DNA from: an uncultured Verrucomicrobiae bacterium
GTDB taxonomy: Bacteria; Verrucomicrobiota; Verrucomicrobiia; Chthoniobacterales; UBA10450
Length of the DNA stretch: 64,000 nt
Direction of reading: 5' to 3'
NCBI GenBank assembly: GCA_963815455.1
Contig: CAWFGO010000001.1
Location: forward strand, 896,001-960,000
Under the pieces are notes generated by a model. That model worked only from the letters and a program-made list of their open reading frames with translations. It was not told where the DNA came from and made no database searches. The position numbers and the translations under genes were made by a program. Shown here piece after piece: positions 4,823-52,968 of this stretch; the first letter of the stretch is position 1; each line of letters begins with the position of its first letter.

Positions 4823-6460
4823 TCAATGCCTTTGCAAAAATCGATGAAGTTCGTCGGCCAGTTTGCGCCCGATCCCTTCCGTCGCAGCGATCTCTTCCAC
4901 GCTCGCTTTGCGCAGTCGATTTACCGAACCGAATCTGCGCAAAAGCACGTTCTTCCGGTTCTGGCTCACCCCGGGACAATCATCGAGAATGCTTTCACCG
5001 ATCCGCTTTTTCATGAGCAGTTGGTGATAGGCGTTGGCGAAACGGTGCGCTTCATCGCGAATCCGCTGGAGCAATCGCAAAGCGCCTGAATCGAGAGGCA
5101 GTTGCAACGGCATGGCCCGGCCCGGCCGGTAAATCTCTTCGTGTTCCTTGGCCAAACCTATGATCGGCAAGTCGTGCAGGCCAAGCCGCTGCAACTCCCG
5201 ACACGCCATCGAAAGCTGTCCCTTTCCTCCATCGACAATGATGAGATCCGGCAAACGAACGGCAACAAAACTTTCGTCATTCCGAGCCCCGAATGCTTTC
5301 GGGGTCGAGGGATCCCGCGGCGCTGCCTCTTCGTTATGCAACGGGATCCCTCCACTTCGGTCGGGATGACCAGAACGAGCAATCGCTTCGGCCGGATTTT
5401 CCTGCGAAAATTCCGCAATATCGGGATTCGCCTCGCGCGCTTCGAGCAAGATCCGCGAGTACCGACGACGCACGACTTCCGCCATGCTGGCAAAATCATC
5501 CTGCCCCTCAACGGTTCGCACTCGATACCGCCGGTAATTATCCTTGTCCGGCACGCCGTCGCGGAAACAAACCATCGAAGCAACGATATGCGTTGTGGAA
5601 ATGTTCGAGATGTCGAAACACTCCATCACGCGCGGCGGGCGCGAAAGTTGCAGGGCATCGGCCAGCGCCTGCACATCCGCCATCGGATCGATCGTGCTCG
5701 GCAGACTGCCACGGGTGAACCGGCGCATCGGCTTCGTCGTGTCGCGGACGCTTTCGATCATGTCCCGCAACTCCGCCGCTTTTTCAAAATCGGTTTTGTC
5801 GGCGGCCTTCCGCATCTCCTCTTCCAGGTTCGCGATCATCTCTCGCGATCGTCCTTCGAGAAATTCGCAGGCCTGGGCGACGCGTTCCCGATATTGCTCG
5901 GCACTGATCTCGCTCAGACGCATCGGCACTTGATAAGTCGATGATTTCAATTCACGCGCAGTGGGCGAGCCGCGGCCAAAGGTCAGCACACCGAATTTCT
6001 TGCGCATGAAATTGAGCGTCTGCCGCAACGCGCCCGAATGCGCATACGGGCCGAAGTAGCGCGCACTATCGTCCTTCTTGAATCGGGCCAGGCGAAACCG
6101 CGGCCAATCCTCCGAGATGTCGATCTTAACCAGGAGAAATCGTTTATCGTCGCGGAAGGAAATATTGTAACGCGGCCGGTATTCCTTGATCAATTTGCCT
6201 TCGAGCAAAACCGATTCCGCATCGCTCCGCACGGTGTGGGTCTCAAAATCCCAGACCGCCTCCAACATGGCGCGCGTCTTCAGATCGGCTTGCGCGATTT
6301 TCGACGGCAGAAAGTATGAGCTGACCCGTTTGCGCAGGTCGCGCGCCTTGCCCACGTAAATGACGCGATTAAACCGGTCGCGCATCAAGTACACGCCGGG
6401 CTTATGCGGCACATCCTGCACCTTCTTCTGCAAATCCGGCTTCTCTTTGGTCAATCGCAT
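4823..6460 (-). CDS. uvrC: Excinuclease ABC subunit C, carrying an in-frame palindromic insertion
   Basis: GIY-YIG (PGVYLM..IYVGKA), UVR domain, ECFDIS, DGGKGQ, RDEAHRFA, C-terminal HhH. Confidence 0.95.
   Translation of the reverse strand: MRLTKEKPDLQKKVQDVPHKPGVYLMRDRFNRVIYVGKARDLRKRVSSYFLPSKIAQADLKTRAMLEAVWDFETHTVRSDAESVLLEGKLIKEYRPRYNISFRDDKRFLLVKIDISEDWPRFRLARFKKDDSARYFGPYAHSGALRQTLNFMRKKFGVLTFGRGSPTARELKSSTYQVPMRLSEISAEQYRERVAQACEFLEGRSREMIANLEEEMRKAADKTDFEKAAELRDMIESVRDTTKPMRRFTRGSLPSTIDPMADVQALADALQLSRPPRVMECFDISNISTTHIVASMVCFRDGVPDKDNYRRYRVRTVEGQDDFASMAEVVRRRYSRILLEAREANPDIAEFSQENPAEAIARSGHPDRSGGIPLHNEEAAPRDPSTPKAFGARNDESFVAVRLPDLIIVDGGKGQLSMACRELQRLGLHDLPIIGLAKEHEEIYRPGRAMPLQLPLDSGALRLLQRIRDEAHRFANAYHQLLMKKRIGESILDDCPGVSQNRKNVLLRRFGSVNRLRKASVEEIAATEGIGRKLADELHRFLQRH
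5276..5370. repeat. Family A palindromic element inside uvrC
   Basis: GTCATTCCGAGC...GGTCGGGATGAC; the ORF stays open across it. Confidence 0.9.
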
Positions 6461-23507: not shown

Positions 23508-23525
23508 GAATCTGGAGGGCGAACA

Positions 23526-24677
23526 TTATCTCAGCCGCGACGGTGTGACAAACGACCTGCCTTTCTCCGACGACTCGGGTGAACCGCCCCTACCTTTGCC
23601 CTTATTACCCCTAAGGCAGGGACGATTCACCGGAATCGCCCGTTTCCGGCTCTTTCTGGCATGATGAAACAAATACTGCTGGGCATACCCTCCGTGTTCA
23701 CCAAAGTATTCTTGTGTGAACACCTGAAGCCGCGATGCGTTCAATTTTGGTGTGCGCGGAAAATAATTCTCCCGCAGGACACGCTCGATCCAGACGTCGA
23801 TTGGAAACGCCCGAAGGCGCTCGTAGGCAAAAAGCATCACACAGTTAGCAACCTTTGCGCCCACGCCCGGGAGCTGGCACAGCCTGGCCCGAAGATCGAC
23901 ATCGGATAATGCCGCGATCTGTCCTAGATCGACCTCTCCATTCGCCACCAGCCGGGCTGTCCCGAGCAGATTCTTGGCCCGATAACCGAGCGCGCATTCA
24001 CGCAGTTCTTGTTCGGAACTTTGGGCCAGCCGCCCCGCGGTAGGAAACGTGTAGACCGTGTGCTTATTGGTGGATCGAGCAGTCCTCAATGCCGGTCCGG
24101 CTCGGACCTCGATGTTAACAAATGTCGGCGAAGCCGAGTCGATTAGCATCGTCCGCGGAGCGGTCGATCCACCCTGCCGATTCTGAATCGAATCCTGAAA
24201 AGTAAGCTTGCTCGGTTCACCGAACCGTTCCCGCAGCGCCCGGGATATTTGACGAATGTGCGCGACCTGCTTCATCGACGAACAAATAAACATCGCCAGA
24301 CACTCCCATTTTGGTTGCCGCATAATCCGCAACCCCCGGCAAAAATCGCGCGCCGCATTCATGATCGGGTCGCTCGGAAACGTCGCGCAGATCTCCGCCA
24401 ACGGATGATCGAGCGCGAAATATTTGTGAATTGTGGCATGGGCATCGTGCCCATGTCTTTGTCCACATCGGCTGGAAGCCGATGCCACTTTCGCGCGCAG
24501 CGTTCCACCAACCTGCTCGACATAAGCCGGAACATCTCCAATCGTTCCCACAAATCCGTTGCCTGCGACGCCGTAGCCGCGCGAAGGCGCGTTGATCTTC
24601 TCCCAGTGGAAGACCTGGCCGGAATCGAGCGTTTTCGCGAGATCGAAGTCAGGCGCGTCAATTTCAATGACATTCAT
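23526..24677 (-). CDS. 8-oxoguanine DNA glycosylase (OGG_N + HhH-GPD) with multiple palindromic insertions
   Basis: FDLAKTLDSGQVFHW, GLRIMRQ, LGYRAK, LPGVGAKVANC, FPIDVW and GGYAQQYLF motifs. Confidence 0.88.
   Translation of the reverse strand: MNVIEIDAPDFDLAKTLDSGQVFHWEKINAPSRGYGVAGNGFVGTIGDVPAYVEQVGGTLRAKVASASSRCGQRHGHDAHATIHKYFALDHPLAEICATFPSDPIMNAARDFCRGLRIMRQPKWECLAMFICSSMKQVAHIRQISRALRERFGEPSKLTFQDSIQNRQGGSTAPRTMLIDSASPTFVNIEVRAGPALRTARSTNKHTVYTFPTAGRLAQSSEQELRECALGYRAKNLLGTARLVANGEVDLGQIAALSDVDLRARLCQLPGVGAKVANCVMLFAYERLRAFPIDVWIERVLRENYFPRTPKLNASRLQVFTQEYFGEHGGYAQQYLFHHARKSRKRAIPVNRPCLRGNKGKGRGGSPESSEKGRSFVTPSRLR
23572..23641. repeat. Two GTAG/GCAG-type hairpins in the glycosylase C-terminal extension
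   Basis: Reverse-complement GTAGGGGCGGTTCACCCGAGTC, and GCAGGGACGATTCACCGGAATCGCCC. Confidence 0.55.
24069..24173. repeat. GGTGGATC...GATCCACC element inside the glycosylase, with nested family D motif (24090-24107)
   Basis: Homologous to the intergenic copy at 32171-32258. Confidence 0.85.
24433..24488. repeat. Family B element (GTGGCAT...ATGCCAC) inside the glycosylase
   Basis: Double hairpin; homologous to the leuS copy. Confidence 0.85.
24561..24589. repeat. Family C element inside the glycosylase
   Basis: GCCTGCGACGCCGTAGCCGCGCGAAGGCG, encoding APSRGYGVAG. Confidence 0.75.
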
Positions 24678-24691
24678 CGGAGAGTGTTTTC

Positions 24692-24885
24692 GCCACAGAT
24701 TAACACCCGCCTTCGCCGGAAGCTACGGCGCGGCAGGCGAATGAATGGAGCGAATGGCATGAGCAACATAGAAGGCAAAGCCGCGACGGGTAGCGGCGAG
24801 CAAGTCGGGAGACGAGCGAGTTTCAAACACGGATGACGTGATTCGGATGGGAATTTATCCGTGTGAATCCGTGTTCATCTGTGGC
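24692..24885. repeat. IR-bounded element (GCCACAGATTAACAC / GTGTTCATCTGTGGC) with nested family C copy (24707-24737)
   Basis: 15-bp terminal IR with one mismatch; internal ATCCGTG repeats. Confidence 0.7.
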
Positions 24886-24899
24886 TAAGTAAGCCCGAC

Positions 24900-28521: not shown

Positions 28522-28612
28522 GTCATTCCGAGCGAAGTCGAGGAATCCCGTTGGACCAGTTTAAGGTTCGCCGCGGGATCCTTCGACTTCGCTGCGCTGC
28601 GCTCAGGATGAC
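28522..28612. repeat. Family A palindromic element, overlapping the hisS stop codon
   Basis: GTCATTCCGAGCG...GCTCAGGATGAC; near-identical to the copy at 39850. Confidence 0.92.
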
Positions 28613-29853
28613 AAGCTGGATTGCGCTTGCAAGTGCGCAAGTAACTGATCTTGCGCGACCAGTCTCTCCTCTCGCGTCGCCAATGTCTTCACTTTCACCT
28701 GCGGCCATTCGTCGCCAAACAGGATTGCGATCCGCGCGCCGAGATGTTCGGCGATTTGAAACTGTTTCCCAACCTTTTCGGCCGTGAGCGGATAATCGAC
28801 TCGATAACCGCGATCACGAAGCTGCTGGATCTGGGCGAGCGCGTCGGCCCGCCGTTCCTCCTTCGCGATCACGGCGTAAATGTCGATCTTCGATCCGGCG
28901 GCGATTGCGTTTTTCATCGACTCCCGCGCGAGTGGCGTTTCGTTGATCAACTCACCGAGGACGACGTCGCCCATGGCAAAACCGAGCGCCGGCATGGAAA
29001 CCGCGTTGTCGCTGAGTTGTGCGATTAAATTGTCGTAACGTCCGCCGCCGGCGATTGCGCGGAATTTTCCCGCCCGATCGAACACTTCGAACACCATGCC
29101 GGTGTAATAAGCGAGCCCGCGAACGATCCGAACATCGACATCGACAAAATCCGCCAGCCCGCGGCTGCGCAGGCCTTCGACAACTTGATCGAGCTTCGCG
29201 CTCTTCCCGCCGCTTTTCAGAATCGCAAAAACCGAGTCGGCCAGCGGGCCGAGTTTTTCCCGCGTTTTCTCGGGCGATTCGCGTTCGGACTTATCGATTA
29301 CTTGCAGCAGTTGGTCCCAGCGATCCGGCGCGACATTTTTCTCGCGCAGAAAATCAGTCCAAAATTCCCGGTCGCTGATTCGCACTACGACATCTTTTTC
29401 GCTGAATCCAAACGCGCGCAGGATGTCGATGCAAAGGGCGACCAACTCGATATCCGCCGCGACCGCGGTTTCGCCGACGACGTCGCAGTTCAACTGATAA
29501 TGCTCGCGCAATCGGCCGCGTTGTTGCTTTTCGTAACGAAAGAATTGGCCAATGGAAAACCACTTGAGCGGTTTCTTGAATTCTCGTTCGTGCGCGGCGA
29601 CCACGCGGGCAAGCGTAGGCGTCAGCTCGGGACGCATGGCGACCTCGCGTTCGCCTTTATCGGTAAAATTGAAGAGTTGATCGACAATCTCGCCGCCGCT
29701 TTTTTTTCGATAAAGATCGGTCGGTTCCAAAATGGGACCGTCCCATTCGACGAAACCGTACCTGCGGGCGACTTCGCGCCACCGTTCGAAAATGTAATTT
29801 CGCGCGGCACAATCCGCAGGCAGAAAATCGCGAAAACCGGGTAAACGATCCAT
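28603..29853 (-). CDS. hisS: Histidine--tRNA ligase
   Basis: RPELT, FRYEKQQRGR, VRGLAYYTG and GGGRYD motifs. Confidence 0.96.
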   Translation of the reverse strand: MDRLPGFRDFLPADCAARNYIFERWREVARRYGFVEWDGPILEPTDLYRKKSGGEIVDQLFNFTDKGEREVAMRPELTPTLARVVAAHEREFKKPLKWFSIGQFFRYEKQQRGRLREHYQLNCDVVGETAVAADIELVALCIDILRAFGFSEKDVVVRISDREFWTDFLREKNVAPDRWDQLLQVIDKSERESPEKTREKLGPLADSVFAILKSGGKSAKLDQVVEGLRSRGLADFVDVDVRIVRGLAYYTGMVFEVFDRAGKFRAIAGGGRYDNLIAQLSDNAVSMPALGFAMGDVVLGELINETPLARESMKNAIAAGSKIDIYAVIAKEERRADALAQIQQLRDRGYRVDYPLTAEKVGKQFQIAEHLGARIAILFGDEWPQVKVKTLATREERLVAQDQLLAHLQAQSSLSS

Positions 29854-32731: not shown

Positions 32732-35542
32732 CTAACCGACCACGATGTTGACAAGCTTTTTCGGCACAACCACGACTTTGCGAACGGTCTTGCCGGCGAC
32801 GAGTTGTTGAATTTTCGGGTTGGCCAGCGCGGCGGTTTCCATTTCCTTCTCAGTCGCCAGGATCGACATCGTCATTCGGTCACGCACTTTGCCGTTCACC
32901 TGAACTACGATTTCGACTTCGTCCTCGACAAGCAACCGTTCGTCATAATCGGGCCATTGTTGTCCGGTGATGTCGCCTTTCGCCTCCAGCTTTTCCCACA
33001 ACTCGGAAGAAAGATGCGGCGCGAATGGGTTAAGCAGAATCAGGAAAGTGCGCATGACCGAGACCGGAATTGCCTCCGCGTTGGTAAAGGCGTTCACGAA
33101 GATCATCATCTGCGAGATCGCGGTGTTGAATGAAAGCGATTCGATGTCCTCAGTGACTTTTTTGATCGTAGCGTGCAATATTTTCAGCTGCGCTTTGGAA
33201 GGATCGACATCTTTCACCGAAGGCGCCAACTCCCATTGGCCGGCTTGATTCTCGGTCATGATCAAACGCCAGACCCGGGCGAGGAAACGGAAAACACCTT
33301 CCACGCCGCGCATGCTCCATGGCTTCATTTGTTCGAGCGGCCCCATGAACATTTCGTAACAGCGAAAAGCATCGGCGCCGTATTGGGCGATAACGTCATC
33401 CGGATCGATCACGTTCCCCCAGCGCTTGGACATTTTGCGGCTGTCTTCGCCAAGAATCATCCCTTGATTCACAAGTCGCTGGAATGGTTCGGGCTTGGAT
33501 AAATAACCAAGATCGAACAACACCTTGTGCCAAAACCGCGCGTAAAGAAGATGCAACACCGCATGTTCGGTCCCGCCCACGTAAAGATCGACCATGCCAG
33601 GCGTGGCATCGGCATCCTGTCGATGAGACATGGGCTGGAAGCCCATGCCACTCCAGTATTTTTCGGCATCTTCACCAACGAAACGCTGGTCGTTTTGCGG
33701 ATCGCAAAATCTTAAGTAATACCAGCACGAGCCGGCCCACTGCGGCATCACGTTGGTTTCGCGCGTCGCCTTGTCGGAATAACGAACCCAATCCCTGGCC
33801 TTGGCTAAAGGCGGCTCCCCCGTGCCCGTCGGTTTGTAATCTTCGAGCGGCGGCGGAACGACTGGAAGTTCAGACTCATCAAGCGCCCGATGATGTCGAT
33901 GCTGCCCGTCCGGCTCGGACTCCCAAACCACAGGAAAAGGCTCTCCCCAGTAACGTTGCCGCGAGAATAACCAGTCGCGCAGTTTGTAATTGATCTTGCC
34001 TTTCCCCTGCTCGTGTTCCTCGAGCCATTTTGTAATCTTCTGAATTCCTTCTCTCGAAGGAAGTCCATCAATCAGGGGTGAATTGAGTGCGATCCCCTCG
34101 CCAACGAAGCAGTCATGATGGATAAAAGCTCGTTCCCCAATTGGATCAGGGGCATAACTGGCGAATTGTCCCTTCCGAATAGCTTCTTGGACATTTGCGC
34201 GATTCTCGTCGCTGATTTCTGCAACGACCGCGCGGATTTCGAGACCAAACTTCTTGGCAAATTCAAAGTCCCGTTCGTCGTGTCCGGGGACGCCCATGAC
34301 CACACCGGTGCCATAGCTGGGGAGCACGTAATCGGCAATCCAAATCGGAATCCGTTCATTGTTTACCGGATTAATTGCGTAGGCGCCGGTGAAAACGCCC
34401 GTCTTTTTTTCAATATCAGCCTTCCGCGTCCGTTCTAGCTTCGATGCCGTCTCGTCTTGATAAGCCCGTATAGCTGCCAGCGGACTTACTCGTGCGGCAA
34501 TATTGTCGCCCTTCCAAGCATCCGGAGTTTGATCCGGCCATTCGTCGGGAAGGCTGAAGATACCGAGAATTAGATGCTCCGGTGCAAGCGTCAGGAATGT
34601 TGCCCCGTACAAAGTGTCGGGTCTCGTAGTGAATACAGGCAGTGGTTGCGCGACCATGCCGTGCTGGCTCTTCTCAAACCAACTCTTCGTCCGCTCAAGG
34701 GAAAGAATGCCGGGAACGGCTTGAGTGGCTAAACCAATTATGAACTCTATCTCGGCGCCTTCACTTTTACCGATCCAATCTTTCTGCAGACATTTGATGC
34801 CTTCTGGCCATTCCAGTCCGTCGAGCCCATCAATCAAGCGGTCGGCATAAGTAGTGATGCGCAGCATCCATTGTCGCATCGGCCGCCGCACTACGGGGAA
34901 TCCGCCTACTTCACTTTTTCCATCGACAACTTCCTCGTTGGCCAGGACAGTGCCTAACTCGGGACACCAGTTCACCGGAACCTCGGAGATGTAAGCGAGA
35001 CGCACTTCATCCGGGTTCTCGCCCCGGTAGGTCGAGATCGGCTCCGCCTTGTTGGTCTTGGGGTTGAACCAGGAATTGTAAATCTGGAGAAAAATCCACT
35101 GGGTCCACTTGTAGTAACGCGGATCGGTGGTGTTGATCTCGCGCTGCCAATCGTAGGAAAAGCCGATGCGTTTGAGCTGCGATTTGAATTTGGCCACGTT
35201 TTCTCGGGTCGTGATCGCGGGATGCTGGCCGCTCTTTATTGCGTATTGCTCGGCCGGCAAACCGAACGCGTCCCAGCCCATCGGATGCAACACATTGAAG
35301 CCGCGCATCCGTTTATACCGCGCGACGATGTCGGTGGCGGTGTATCCTTCCGGATGCCCGACGTGCAATCCCGCGCCGCTCGGGTACGGGAACATGTCGA
35401 GCACGTAAAACTTCGGCCTGGCCGGATCGAAGTTTTTTTCGCCGGGATTCGTGGCGTGGAAAAGCTGGCGCTCTTCCCAGATTTGCTGCCATTTCGGCTC
35501 AATCTGATCGAATGGATACGGTTTGCGGCGTTCGCTGCTCAT
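32732..35542 (-). CDS. leuS: Leucine--tRNA ligase
   Basis: MFPYPSGAGLHVGH, FTTRPDT, SRQRYWG and KMSK motifs; start at MSSERR. Confidence 0.97.
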   Translation of the reverse strand: MSSERRKPYPFDQIEPKWQQIWEERQLFHATNPGEKNFDPARPKFYVLDMFPYPSGAGLHVGHPEGYTATDIVARYKRMRGFNVLHPMGWDAFGLPAEQYAIKSGQHPAITTRENVAKFKSQLKRIGFSYDWQREINTTDPRYYKWTQWIFLQIYNSWFNPKTNKAEPISTYRGENPDEVRLAYISEVPVNWCPELGTVLANEEVVDGKSEVGGFPVVRRPMRQWMLRITTYADRLIDGLDGLEWPEGIKCLQKDWIGKSEGAEIEFIIGLATQAVPGILSLERTKSWFEKSQHGMVAQPLPVFTTRPDTLYGATFLTLAPEHLILGIFSLPDEWPDQTPDAWKGDNIAARVSPLAAIRAYQDETASKLERTRKADIEKKTGVFTGAYAINPVNNERIPIWIADYVLPSYGTGVVMGVPGHDERDFEFAKKFGLEIRAVVAEISDENRANVQEAIRKGQFASYAPDPIGERAFIHHDCFVGEGIALNSPLIDGLPSREGIQKITKWLEEHEQGKGKINYKLRDWLFSRQRYWGEPFPVVWESEPDGQHRHHRALDESELPVVPPPLEDYKPTGTGEPPLAKARDWVRYSDKATRETNVMPQWAGSCWYYLRFCDPQNDQRFVGEDAEKYWSGMGFQPMSHRQDADATPGMVDLYVGGTEHAVLHLLYARFWHKVLFDLGYLSKPEPFQRLVNQGMILGEDSRKMSKRWGNVIDPDDVIAQYGADAFRCYEMFMGPLEQMKPWSMRGVEGVFRFLARVWRLIMTENQAGQWELAPSVKDVDPSKAQLKILHATIKKVTEDIESLSFNTAISQMMIFVNAFTNAEAIPVSVMRTFLILLNPFAPHLSSELWEKLEAKGDITGQQWPDYDERLLVEDEVEIVVQVNGKVRDRMTMSILATEKEMETAALANPKIQQLVAGKTVRKVVVVPKKLVNIVVG
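33603..33651. repeat. Family B element inside leuS
   Basis: GTGGCATCGGCATCCTGTCGATG-AGA-CATGGGCTGGAAGCCCATGCCAC. Confidence 0.85.
33903..33920. repeat. Family D 18-bp motif inside leuS
   Basis: TGCCCGTCCGGCTCGGAC. Confidence 0.7.
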
Positions 35543-51381: not shown

Positions 51382-52968
51382 ATGACGAAACGAGTCCTGA
51401 TATTGTCGATCTTATTTACCATTTGCGCGGGGAGTGTGGTTTGCGCCCAAACCATGCAACCACCGAAAATTTCGGCTCCGCCGCAGCCTGCGCATCACGA
51501 GACATATACCTGCCCGATGCATCCGGAAGTGGTGTCGGACAAACCGGGGAAATGTCCCAAATGCGGGATGACACTGGTGCTGATTGAAAAAGGCAAACGC
51601 CCACCCGTCCGCCGTAGCTTTGGCGAAGGAGGAACGCCCAAGGCCGAGCAGCATGCGACCCACGACGCGAATGGGATGGCGATGCCGCATTCGCCGGCCG
51701 AGCACGCGAGCGAAATGAAGATGTCGATGCAATCTTCGATCAACATTGCCGATCCGATGGGCCGCGAAAGTTCGGGCACGGCTTGGAATCCGGACTCCAC
51801 GCCGATGTACGGACACATGATGATGTTCGGTGACGACATGCTCATGTTGCACGGCGGAATTTTGCCGCGTTATACCAATGTGAGTTCGCGCCGCGGCGAC
51901 GACCGCATCGACGCGCCGAACTGGTTCATGGCGATGTATTCGCATCCGTTCAACGAGAACATGCAGCTTGGCGGACGTCTCATGATGAGCCTCGATCCGT
52001 TGACCGAACAGGGCCGAGGCTATCCGCTGCTTTTTCAAAGCGGCGAGACCTGGCACGAACGGGCGCTCCACGATCGCCAGCATCCGCATGATTTGTTCGA
52101 CGAGCTTTCCCTTTCCTATTCGCAAAAGTTCGATCTCGATCTTAGCGCGTTCATTTATTTCGGCTATCCGGGCGAGCCGGCGCTCGGGCCGCCGACGTTC
52201 ATGCATCGACTCAGCGCGATGGATAATCCCGACGCCCCAATCGGACATCACTGGCAAGATTCGACGCATATCACCTTCGGCGTCGCCACCGCTGGGCTGC
52301 AATGGCGCAATCTGAAAATCGAGGGCAGCATTTTCACCGGACGCGAACCGGATGAGGATCGCTACGACTTCGATCGCCCGAAGTTCGATTCCTACAGCGG
52401 CCGGATTTCGTGGAATCCGACATCAAATCTCGCGCTCCAGGTCTCGCACGGTTACCTCCGAAGCCCGGAAGCAAGTGCCAGTCCGGCTCGGACCGAGCCG
52501 AACGTCAACCGGCATCGCACGACCGCGTCCGCCATCTGCAATCTCCCGCTCGGCCCCGATCGGAATTGGTCGAGCAGTTTCGTCTGGGGAAAGAACAACG
52601 ACGCAGGCGAGAAGACGCAATCGTTTTTGCTCGAATCAAATTATCAACGTGGCCGCGACACCGTTTACGGGCGCTGGGAACTCGTGGAAAAATCGGGACA
52701 CGAACTGGTACTTAAGCCGATCGACCAGGAAAAAGTATTTACGGTCAACGCGCTCACCGCCGGTTACGTGCACGATTTTTCGCACGGCGATAAGATCGAC
52801 ATCGGACTCGGCGGGCAATTCACGTTGAATGTTTGGCCGAGCGAACTTGATCGTTATTACGGCGATGGGGTCGGTTACGGATTCCAAGTTTTTCTTCGCC
52901 TTCGTCCTTCACGGCATGGTCATGATGCACATGAGCACGGCAAGCATGTTCCCGGATTCGAAAAATAA
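51382..52968 (+). CDS. Heavy-metal-binding domain (YTCPMHP..CPKC) plus probable outer-membrane beta-barrel
   Basis: Signal peptide, YTCPMHPEV, Met/His-rich linker, SGTAW.P and DRQHPHDLF motifs. Confidence 0.8.
   Translation: MTKRVLILSILFTICAGSVVCAQTMQPPKISAPPQPAHHETYTCPMHPEVVSDKPGKCPKCGMTLVLIEKGKRPPVRRSFGEGGTPKAEQHATHDANGMAMPHSPAEHASEMKMSMQSSINIADPMGRESSGTAWNPDSTPMYGHMMMFGDDMLMLHGGILPRYTNVSSRRGDDRIDAPNWFMAMYSHPFNENMQLGGRLMMSLDPLTEQGRGYPLLFQSGETWHERALHDRQHPHDLFDELSLSYSQKFDLDLSAFIYFGYPGEPALGPPTFMHRLSAMDNPDAPIGHHWQDSTHITFGVATAGLQWRNLKIEGSIFTGREPDEDRYDFDRPKFDSYSGRISWNPTSNLALQVSHGYLRSPEASASPARTEPNVNRHRTTASAICNLPLGPDRNWSSSFVWGKNNDAGEKTQSFLLESNYQRGRDTVYGRWELVEKSGHELVLKPIDQEKVFTVNALTAGYVHDFSHGDKIDIGLGGQFTLNVWPSELDRYYGDGVGYGFQVFLRLRPSRHGHDAHEHGKHVPGFEK
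51605..51632. repeat. Family C element inside a CDS
   Basis: CCGTCCGCCGTAGCTTTGGCGAAGGAGG, encoding VRRSFGEGG. Confidence 0.7.
52476..52493. repeat. Family D 18-bp motif inside a CDS
   Basis: TGCCAGTCCGGCTCGGAC, encoding ASPART. Confidence 0.72.

Follow-up and report, generated by a model that had tools for sequence, protein, structure and literature searches.

How a DNA repair gene can hold several families of palindromic repeats and still be read from end to end is the question raised by one locus in the 64,000-nucleotide stretch of DNA analyzed here (the window). The open reading frame at 23526..24677 (minus strand) encodes 383 amino acids with OGG_N and HhH-GPD domains and, judged by its sequence, is an intact OGG1-type 8-oxoguanine DNA glycosylase gene (OGG) of a Chthoniobacterales genome. 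Its neighbors are a sodium:solute symporter gene on one side and a tonB-like gene on the other. The protein matches PF07934 (OGG_N) with an E value of 1.3e-15 and 58 bits (cut-off 23) and PF00730 (HhH-GPD) with 26.7 bits (cut-off 26.2). Its closest solved relatives by sequence are the Clostridium and human OGG1 enzymes, and a Foldseek search with its predicted structure gave hOGG1 and CacOgg as top matches (E 1e-20). OGG matches were found in 38 of the 41 genomes searched, and the named relatives belong to Chthoniobacterales or Candidatus Udaeobacter-type Verrucomicrobiota.

The glycosylase looks to be in working order, and it is presumably active. Residues G20, K275, D294, Q333, and F337 are intact, and K275 (GAKVA) and D294 (FPIDVW) are unchanged throughout 29 aligned sequences. 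The reading frame has no internal stops. These points agree with the initial annotation, which had reported the HhH lysine and the aspartate as intact and the frame as uninterrupted. Introns and recoding were rejected because there is no stop or frameshift that needs explaining. K275 aligns with the position at which structures 3F0Z and 3F10 differ (K/Q), and D294 pairs with the Asp of CacOgg FPVDTW. G20 (DSGQVF) pairs with CacOgg DCGQCF in a weak-scoring segment and is invariant in the 29 sequences; according to the available text of PMC3397491, the conserved Gly (hOGG1 Gly42) reads N7-H of 8-oxoG. Q333 and F337 (AQQYLF) align with CacOgg Gln278 and Phe282, which that source describes as stacking on 8-oxoG. 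The protein thus shares with CacOgg (Clostridium acetobutylicum; PDB 3F0Z, 3F10, 3I0W; PMC3397491, as far as available) the three-domain fold and the 8-oxoG pocket residues Gly, Lys, Asp, Gln, and Phe. Unlike CacOgg it has Met at the Asn127 position and His at the Met132 position, which is a family-wide trait unrelated to the inserts. The Asn of the NN(N) motif, which fills the flipped-base gap, is absent, SSMKQ standing opposite CacOgg SANNR, and most orthologues lack it with or without inserts. The substrate range of this OGG family may differ from that of CacOgg.

Relative to its orthologues, the protein has about 90 extra residues, consisting of repeats and a tail. An alignment of 30 orthologues, with genome-wide BLAST and pattern counts for the repeat families, places them at aa 29-39 (+10), aa 64-82 (+13), aa ~157-203 (+45), and the C terminus. 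Site 1, a turn within the N-terminal domain, holds a 30-nt family C palindromic repeat (24562..24591; this and the following elements are on the minus strand) with a net gain of 10 residues. Site 2 holds a 56-nt family B doublet of GTGG-tagged, REPIN-like REPs (24433..24488); the net gain is 39 nt, so host bases were lost or replaced. Part of the site-3 insert is a 105-nt family G doublet (GGTGGATCG...CGATCCACC; 24069..24173), in which an 18-nt family D palindrome is nested (24091..24108), adding six residues relative to the D-free allele. A weak 16-nt hairpin in the leader of this insert (24179..24194) is at most a candidate repeat. The tail carries a 70-nt GTAG-type doublet that forms one long stem (23572..23641). 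Alignment and copy counts thus confirm the families C, B, and G with nested D named in the initial annotation. Its two C-terminal hairpins are the two arms of this single doublet, and its "about six elements" was right as to multiple in-frame repeats and somewhat high as to number, since five elements occupy four sites and a sixth is reached only by counting the 16-nt hairpin before G. The share of the reading frame derived from repeats, put earlier at roughly a fifth, is 17% for the internal repeats (191 nt) and 24% with the tail and small hairpin included (277 of 1152 nt).

The B, G, and tail elements each consist of two inverted palindromes with a short spacer, and C and D are single palindromes. 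The tail element has a GTAG tag, B and G have GTGG tags, and C and D have no terminal tag. The GTGG variant is known from Opitutus terrae (PMC3733652, available text). By pattern, the genome has 100 copies of family C, 33 of B, 29 of G, and 32 of D, and one other clear copy of the tail doublet. A search against Rfam gave one chance match only (mir-576, 25 bits, cut-off 99). The tail seems to be a read-through into what was once intergenic DNA and not a core insertion, since it ends in a conserved TTGTCA-N15-GATAA motif that overlaps the stop codon (23525..23551, minus strand) and recurs with the same spacing toward the 3' end in 102 of 172 orthologues. Arms related to the GTAG doublet are found near the 3' end in 9 of the 172. 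The motif is probably the promoter of the downstream tonB-exbB-exbD-def genes; a consensus promoter scan made no call at this motif. The window holds 26 repeat segments in all. A cluster of family C and two other repeats lies between the OGG start and the symporter gene (24700-24830 and 24850-24890), and in-frame repeat inserts are found in UvrC (4823-6460, minus strand), LeuS (32732-35542, minus strand), and an unnamed gene (51517-52968, plus strand). A repeat at 28526-28640 (minus strand) lies upstream of aspS and gives rise to a spurious-looking N-terminal extension in the list of open reading frames.

Inserts of this sort are widespread in the genome. With a gene caller of our own (3,423 genes), 218 genes matched a library of 924 repeat loci from intergenic DNA, and in 125 of them the match was internal; the chance control gave one match in 1,141 codon-shuffled genes. 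Comparison with reciprocal orthologues in the genome G023, from a second genus, identified 123 internal REP-like sites in 91 of 1,539 conserved genes, which does not support the idea that OGG is special in kind. It is extreme in degree. OGG is second among the 91 genes by insert density, only five of the 91 have three or more sites, and among 172 distinct orthologues it has the greatest insert load and is the only one with all three internal sites filled. UvrA of the same genome (g1005, 1,972 aa) has five internal repeat sites, at several of which G023 has a different repeat. Overall, 44 of the 123 sites carry a repeat at the equivalent place in G023, of the same family in 20 cases and of another in 24. 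Random placement (n=500) gives 0.9 shared sites (maximum 5), or 7.9 (maximum 14) when sites are placed within the same genes.

A single gene with in-frame palindromes is ordinary, and OGG is an extreme example of a published kind. Intragenic REPs were described by Di Nocera et al. 2013 (PMC3733652), whose available text reports the most in Opitutus terrae, a verrucomicrobium, with several per gene, includes Rickettsia conorii among the GTAG/CGTC cases, and describes a GTGG-tagged family. The OGG palindromes resemble those REPs in being single or doublet and in frame within conserved genes. The insertion sites in that account differ among genes of one class except in recB of two Xanthomonas, whereas here at least six repeat families recur in the same fixed loops throughout a bacterial family and alleles change as blocks. 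The Rickettsia RPEs are likewise in-frame palindromic inserts in conserved proteins, and as far as PMC2229807 is available, an RPE-bearing guanylate kinase tested active and RPEs are viewed as neutral or slightly harmful (Ogata 2000, Abergel 2006). RPE-1 is 105-146 bp and occurs in an intracellular parasite (PMC2229807, same text), in contrast to the many nested 18-105 nt families of a free-living soil lineage with resident RAYTs. Indels in PVC genes are treated without repeats in the accessible part of PMC3000692.

The frame appears to be kept by the removal of alleles that break it. Copies of family C differ in length by a base or two, and they are a multiple of three in 16 of 17 cases inside genes versus 29 of 83 outside (p=5.5e-6). 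This test is partly circular because an insert of another length would break the open reading frame call, so the missing frameshifted class was searched for directly. Comparison with 1,629 G023 proteins turned up 241 frameshift junctions, 4 of them near a repeat, and 93 internal stops, of which 2, from a single gene, were near one. Nearly all of these junctions and stops lie away from repeats, and assembly indels or true pseudogenes probably account for them. Most family B copies, even those in genes, have lengths that are not a multiple of three, so there the frame is kept through loss of host bases. The selection for frame preservation proposed in the initial annotation is thus supported as a purifying sieve against frameshifting alleles, with no sign of a benefit from the inserts themselves.

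The same few loops of OGG are used again and again. Orthologues were taken from 190 loci (30, the best 80 of 511, and the best 80 of 532; 172 distinct proteins), and the two best-80 sets were ranked with an insert-bearing query, which biases them toward intact, similar genes. In this sample site 2 is filled in 107 of the 171 orthologues scored, one having been left out as misaligned, by at least six unrelated families; site 3 is filled in 21 of 172, and site 1 has an insert of any kind in 2 of 171. A sample drawn without regard to score shows a site-2 insert in 11 of 23 family relatives. The count is 10 of 20 without the unpublished genomes G008 (insert) and G003 and G015 (both empty), all three of which are also in the alignment, tree, and structural model. 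Orthologues have gaps or other inserts at the positions filled in this OGG, and the proposed insertion hotspot is supported and extends further than the single sequence could show.

The families at site 2 have fixed boundaries, and family B lies at the same two distances in 15 of 25 cases. When close pairs of orthologues differ in their site-2 state (62 pairs), the adjoining host codons differ by a median of 52%, those further upstream by 30% and 20%, and the rest of the gene by 9%. Same-state close pairs (56) differ by 7-8% in both flanks and the rest of the gene; the pairs in these comparisons are not independent. Fixed boundaries and changes of state that take the host codons along point to few origins followed by recombination, which apparently swaps loop alleles between close relatives. 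Empty site-2 alleles are spread as blocks as well (L065 versus L263), and the site-3 allele of the source genome is the allele of L065 and L262-L270 plus the 18 nt of family D. The idea that each insert entered this lineage independently is not supported, given alleles common to other lineages and the apparent recombination. The OGG tree is poorly resolved, and the 66 parsimony changes at site 2 (97 in shuffles) were rejected as a count of 66 insertions because the states change as blocks. Some of the mosaic alleles come from metagenome assemblies, and assembly chimeras are a possible source of the blocks.

The reading that best fits these results, and probably the correct one, is a sieve of tolerated REP/REPIN landings combined with recombining loop alleles, acting on the OGG1 gene of a REP-crowded genome. 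REP/REPIN-type palindromes would occasionally land in coding DNA, presumably through RAYT catalysis, and selection would purge any insertion that caused a frameshift, introduced a stop, or struck the folded core. Insertions at the C terminus or in one of a few tolerant surface loops would persist as disordered, probably nearly neutral peptides. A given family would have entered a given loop on one or a few occasions, in many cases at the cost of a few host bases, and loop alleles would then move between lineages by homologous recombination over conserved flanks, so that a single gene could stack alleles of several origins. Families C and D, as single palindromes without a terminal GTAG-type tag, may move otherwise. 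What is new here is that unrelated repeat families reuse the same few loops throughout an abundant family of soil bacteria, with apparent exchange of the loops as blocks; the literature covered, which takes in few subscription papers, contains no account of family-wide reuse of intragenic sites. The empty, family B, family G, and other alleles form a natural allelic series on a small assayable enzyme.

REPINs are inverted REP doublets with a spacer, and the associated Y1 HUH transposase genes (RAYTs) are flanked by their own REPs (PMC3116915; 10.1101/2021.07.10.451892; 10.1101/119735; PMC6006769). The available texts of these sources place REPINs almost exclusively outside genes and describe RAYTs as non-mobile, single-copy, and extragenic. 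The families found here do not fit this description. By our gene calls, 16 of the 33 family B copies are inside genes, as are 13 of 32 for D, 17 of 100 for C, and 4 of 29 for G, and housekeeping genes carry whole REP-RAYT-REP units in frame at fixed sites equivalent to those of OGG. Y1_Tnp matches in the genome number 16. One free RAYT is bordered by family G (G000:C2:698713). No flanking element of B, C, D, or the tail family was seen at any of the 16 Y1 loci in this 90% complete genome, a point against the reading given above. In-frame RAYTs number four and lie in CarB, MetH, RecG, and AlaS (G000:C1:1471019, C3:170839, C5:91225, and C2:124634; L044, L039, L043, and L037), three with detected flanking repeats; the flanks in AlaS were not detected as repeats. 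A Y1 search of 40 family genomes found at least 29 open reading frames of 690 aa or more outside the source genome, among the 150 of 189 matches listed. Twenty of these were fetched (L342-L361), and all 20 are housekeeping hosts: six CarB, four MetH, two each of ValS, RecG, and AlaS, and LeuS, ThrS, PurL, and ClpB. The HUH motif is found in all 20 fusions and the Tyr motif in 19, and the REPs flanking in-frame RAYT domains are mostly inverted. In a 33-row tree the fused RAYTs form two supported clades separate from the free RAYTs. The thrS insert of the source genome was tried as a RAYT remnant and rejected, as tblastn gave no match.

These units raise the alternative of targeted docking or homing, in which the loops would serve as landing sites specific in sequence or structure, REP-RAYT-REP units would behave as in-frame, non-splicing inteins, loss of the RAYT would leave a REPIN, and RAYT nicks at resident REPs would start the gene conversion by which alleles are swapped. 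Inteins and homing endonucleases are mobile units too, resident at fixed positions within conserved nucleic-acid enzymes. The OGG inserts differ from inteins in that they show no splicing motif or evidence of splicing and presumably stay in the protein. Docking would account for the in-frame units just described, for the use of the CarB site by RAYTs of both fused clades and of different hosts by closely related RAYTs, and for a second MetH site at which the source genome and G023 have a repeat doublet and three relatives have REP-RAYT-REP. Family C copies inside genes are also often preceded by GATCGA-like bases. However, no RAYT was found inside OGG among the 190 loci or, in a weak search, among eight longer homologues out of 2,945 candidates. 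The spread of empty alleles as blocks is not predicted by homing, and the empty site-2 loops have no clear common motif. Docking is therefore an unlikely explanation for OGG.

A broader version deserves slightly more weight and is put forward tentatively. Fixed in-frame docking sites in Chthoniobacterales housekeeping and repair genes might cycle through empty, REPIN, and REP-RAYT-REP states, the two RAYT lineages being non-splicing, intein-like passengers that move between host genes, with RAYT nicking driving cross-species conversion of loop alleles. The OGG inserts would then be footprints of RAYTs, which is plausible. Such a cycle would upset the picture of RAYTs as domesticated, immobile genes confined to extragenic space and would give a direct test of why intragenic REPs favor repair genes. 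If the RAYT link holds, a transposase system can persist inside essential genes without splicing. The literature covered has no account of in-frame RAYTs in housekeeping genes; among supplements, those of PMC3733652 were included, and others could list fusions. The available text of PMC6006769 sets aside unexpectedly long Y1 proteins as fusions or annotation errors.

The sieve of tolerated landings does not by itself explain one feature of the genome, which is the kind of gene that carries inserts. The available text of PMC3733652 reports a bias of intragenic REPs toward UvrABCD, DnaE2, helicases, and tRNA synthetases and speculates about a mutator role; here the repair bias proposed in 2013 is tested against controls, for the first time. 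Gene classes were assigned from NCBIfam names (E<=1e-60), by way of G023 orthologues, for 113 carriers and an equal number of length-matched controls; genes that ran over a fetch boundary are incomplete, and many are unnamed in both groups. Repair and replication genes make up 13 of 112 carriers, OGG left out, and 4 of 113 controls (p=0.025). The carriers are UvrA, UvrB, UvrC, Mfd, MutS, XseA, a presumably RarA-like protein, PolX, PcrA, LigD, DnaE, DnaE2, and DnaX, and the controls are DnaA, RecA, GyrB, and MutY. With tRNA synthetases and RNA-modifying enzymes added, the counts are 26 and 7 (p=3e-4), leaving out the control RNA polymerase, sigma, EF-Tu, and RF1. These categories are post hoc, set after the names were seen. 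Membrane proteins number 24 among controls versus 15 among carriers, and with soluble proteins only the excess is 13 of 97 versus 4 of 89 (p=0.042). The bias toward nucleic-acid enzymes is not explained by loop tolerance alone. Low expression was considered as a cause of insert load, and the codon score of carriers is no different from that of controls (p=0.22, 0.35); only the top fifth by codon score is depleted, with 7.7 versus 19-38 sites per 100,000 aa.

This excess, together with the occupation of site 2 in most orthologues, could suggest adaptive or regulatory inserts that tune repair enzymes, as in the mutator effect speculated on by Di Nocera et al., or that alter mRNA stability or translation. 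Yet the peptides found at one site share neither sequence nor length and trade places with the empty state, and tRNA synthetases, RNA-modifying enzymes, and metabolic enzymes carry inserts too. An adaptive role is thus improbable.

The position of the inserts in the fold and the selection on the core agree with tolerated landings. An AlphaFold model built from a 29-sequence alignment has a mean pLDDT of 82, with the core above 90, and in it the inserts are low-confidence loops of a normal OGG1 fold, placed between strands or before a helix. Their pLDDT ranges from 33 to 66 (blocks of 54, 66, and 33-53), and the tail scores under 55. Core dN/dS is 0.09-0.16 in comparison with the 10 orthologues nearest by dS, and relaxed selection is not seen, although with dS about 1 to the nearest orthologues a recent relaxation would go unnoticed. 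Median dN/dS among 554 close pairs is equal regardless of insert load, going from 0.118 without inserts through 0.123 to 0.116 at heavy load, with 0.127 in mixed pairs. The protein deviates at 2 of 135 highly conserved columns, which is also the orthologue median. Soil DNA contigs, from four runs of one study and at about 89-94% identity, represent relatives and not the source strain; they cover, without gaps, both the full site-3 insert, at 29 differences over 264 nt, and the tail, at 55 over 927 nt, so these alleles are common to diverged relatives. The idea that OGG is a redundant copy in early decay, its inserts gathered under relaxed selection, draws on the Fpg domain match in the same genome (Fpg/MutM), the top insert load, and a truncated OGG in one relative, but it is largely refuted by the dN/dS of about 0.1, the intact catalytic residues, the gap-free contigs, and the finding of OGG in 23 of 24 family genomes searched, all of which support a gene that is, as far as sequence can tell, not decaying.

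Three of the longer OGG homologues (P0001-P0003) are fused to an FAD oxidoreductase-like region or to PF04029. The truncated relative, one of 23 compared, is the OGG orthologue of G016 (L004:940-1060), which has lost its first ~27 residues, including the SGQ motif, at site 1, with a family G element beside the loss. It is likely a pseudogene, and it indicates that harmful events do occur.
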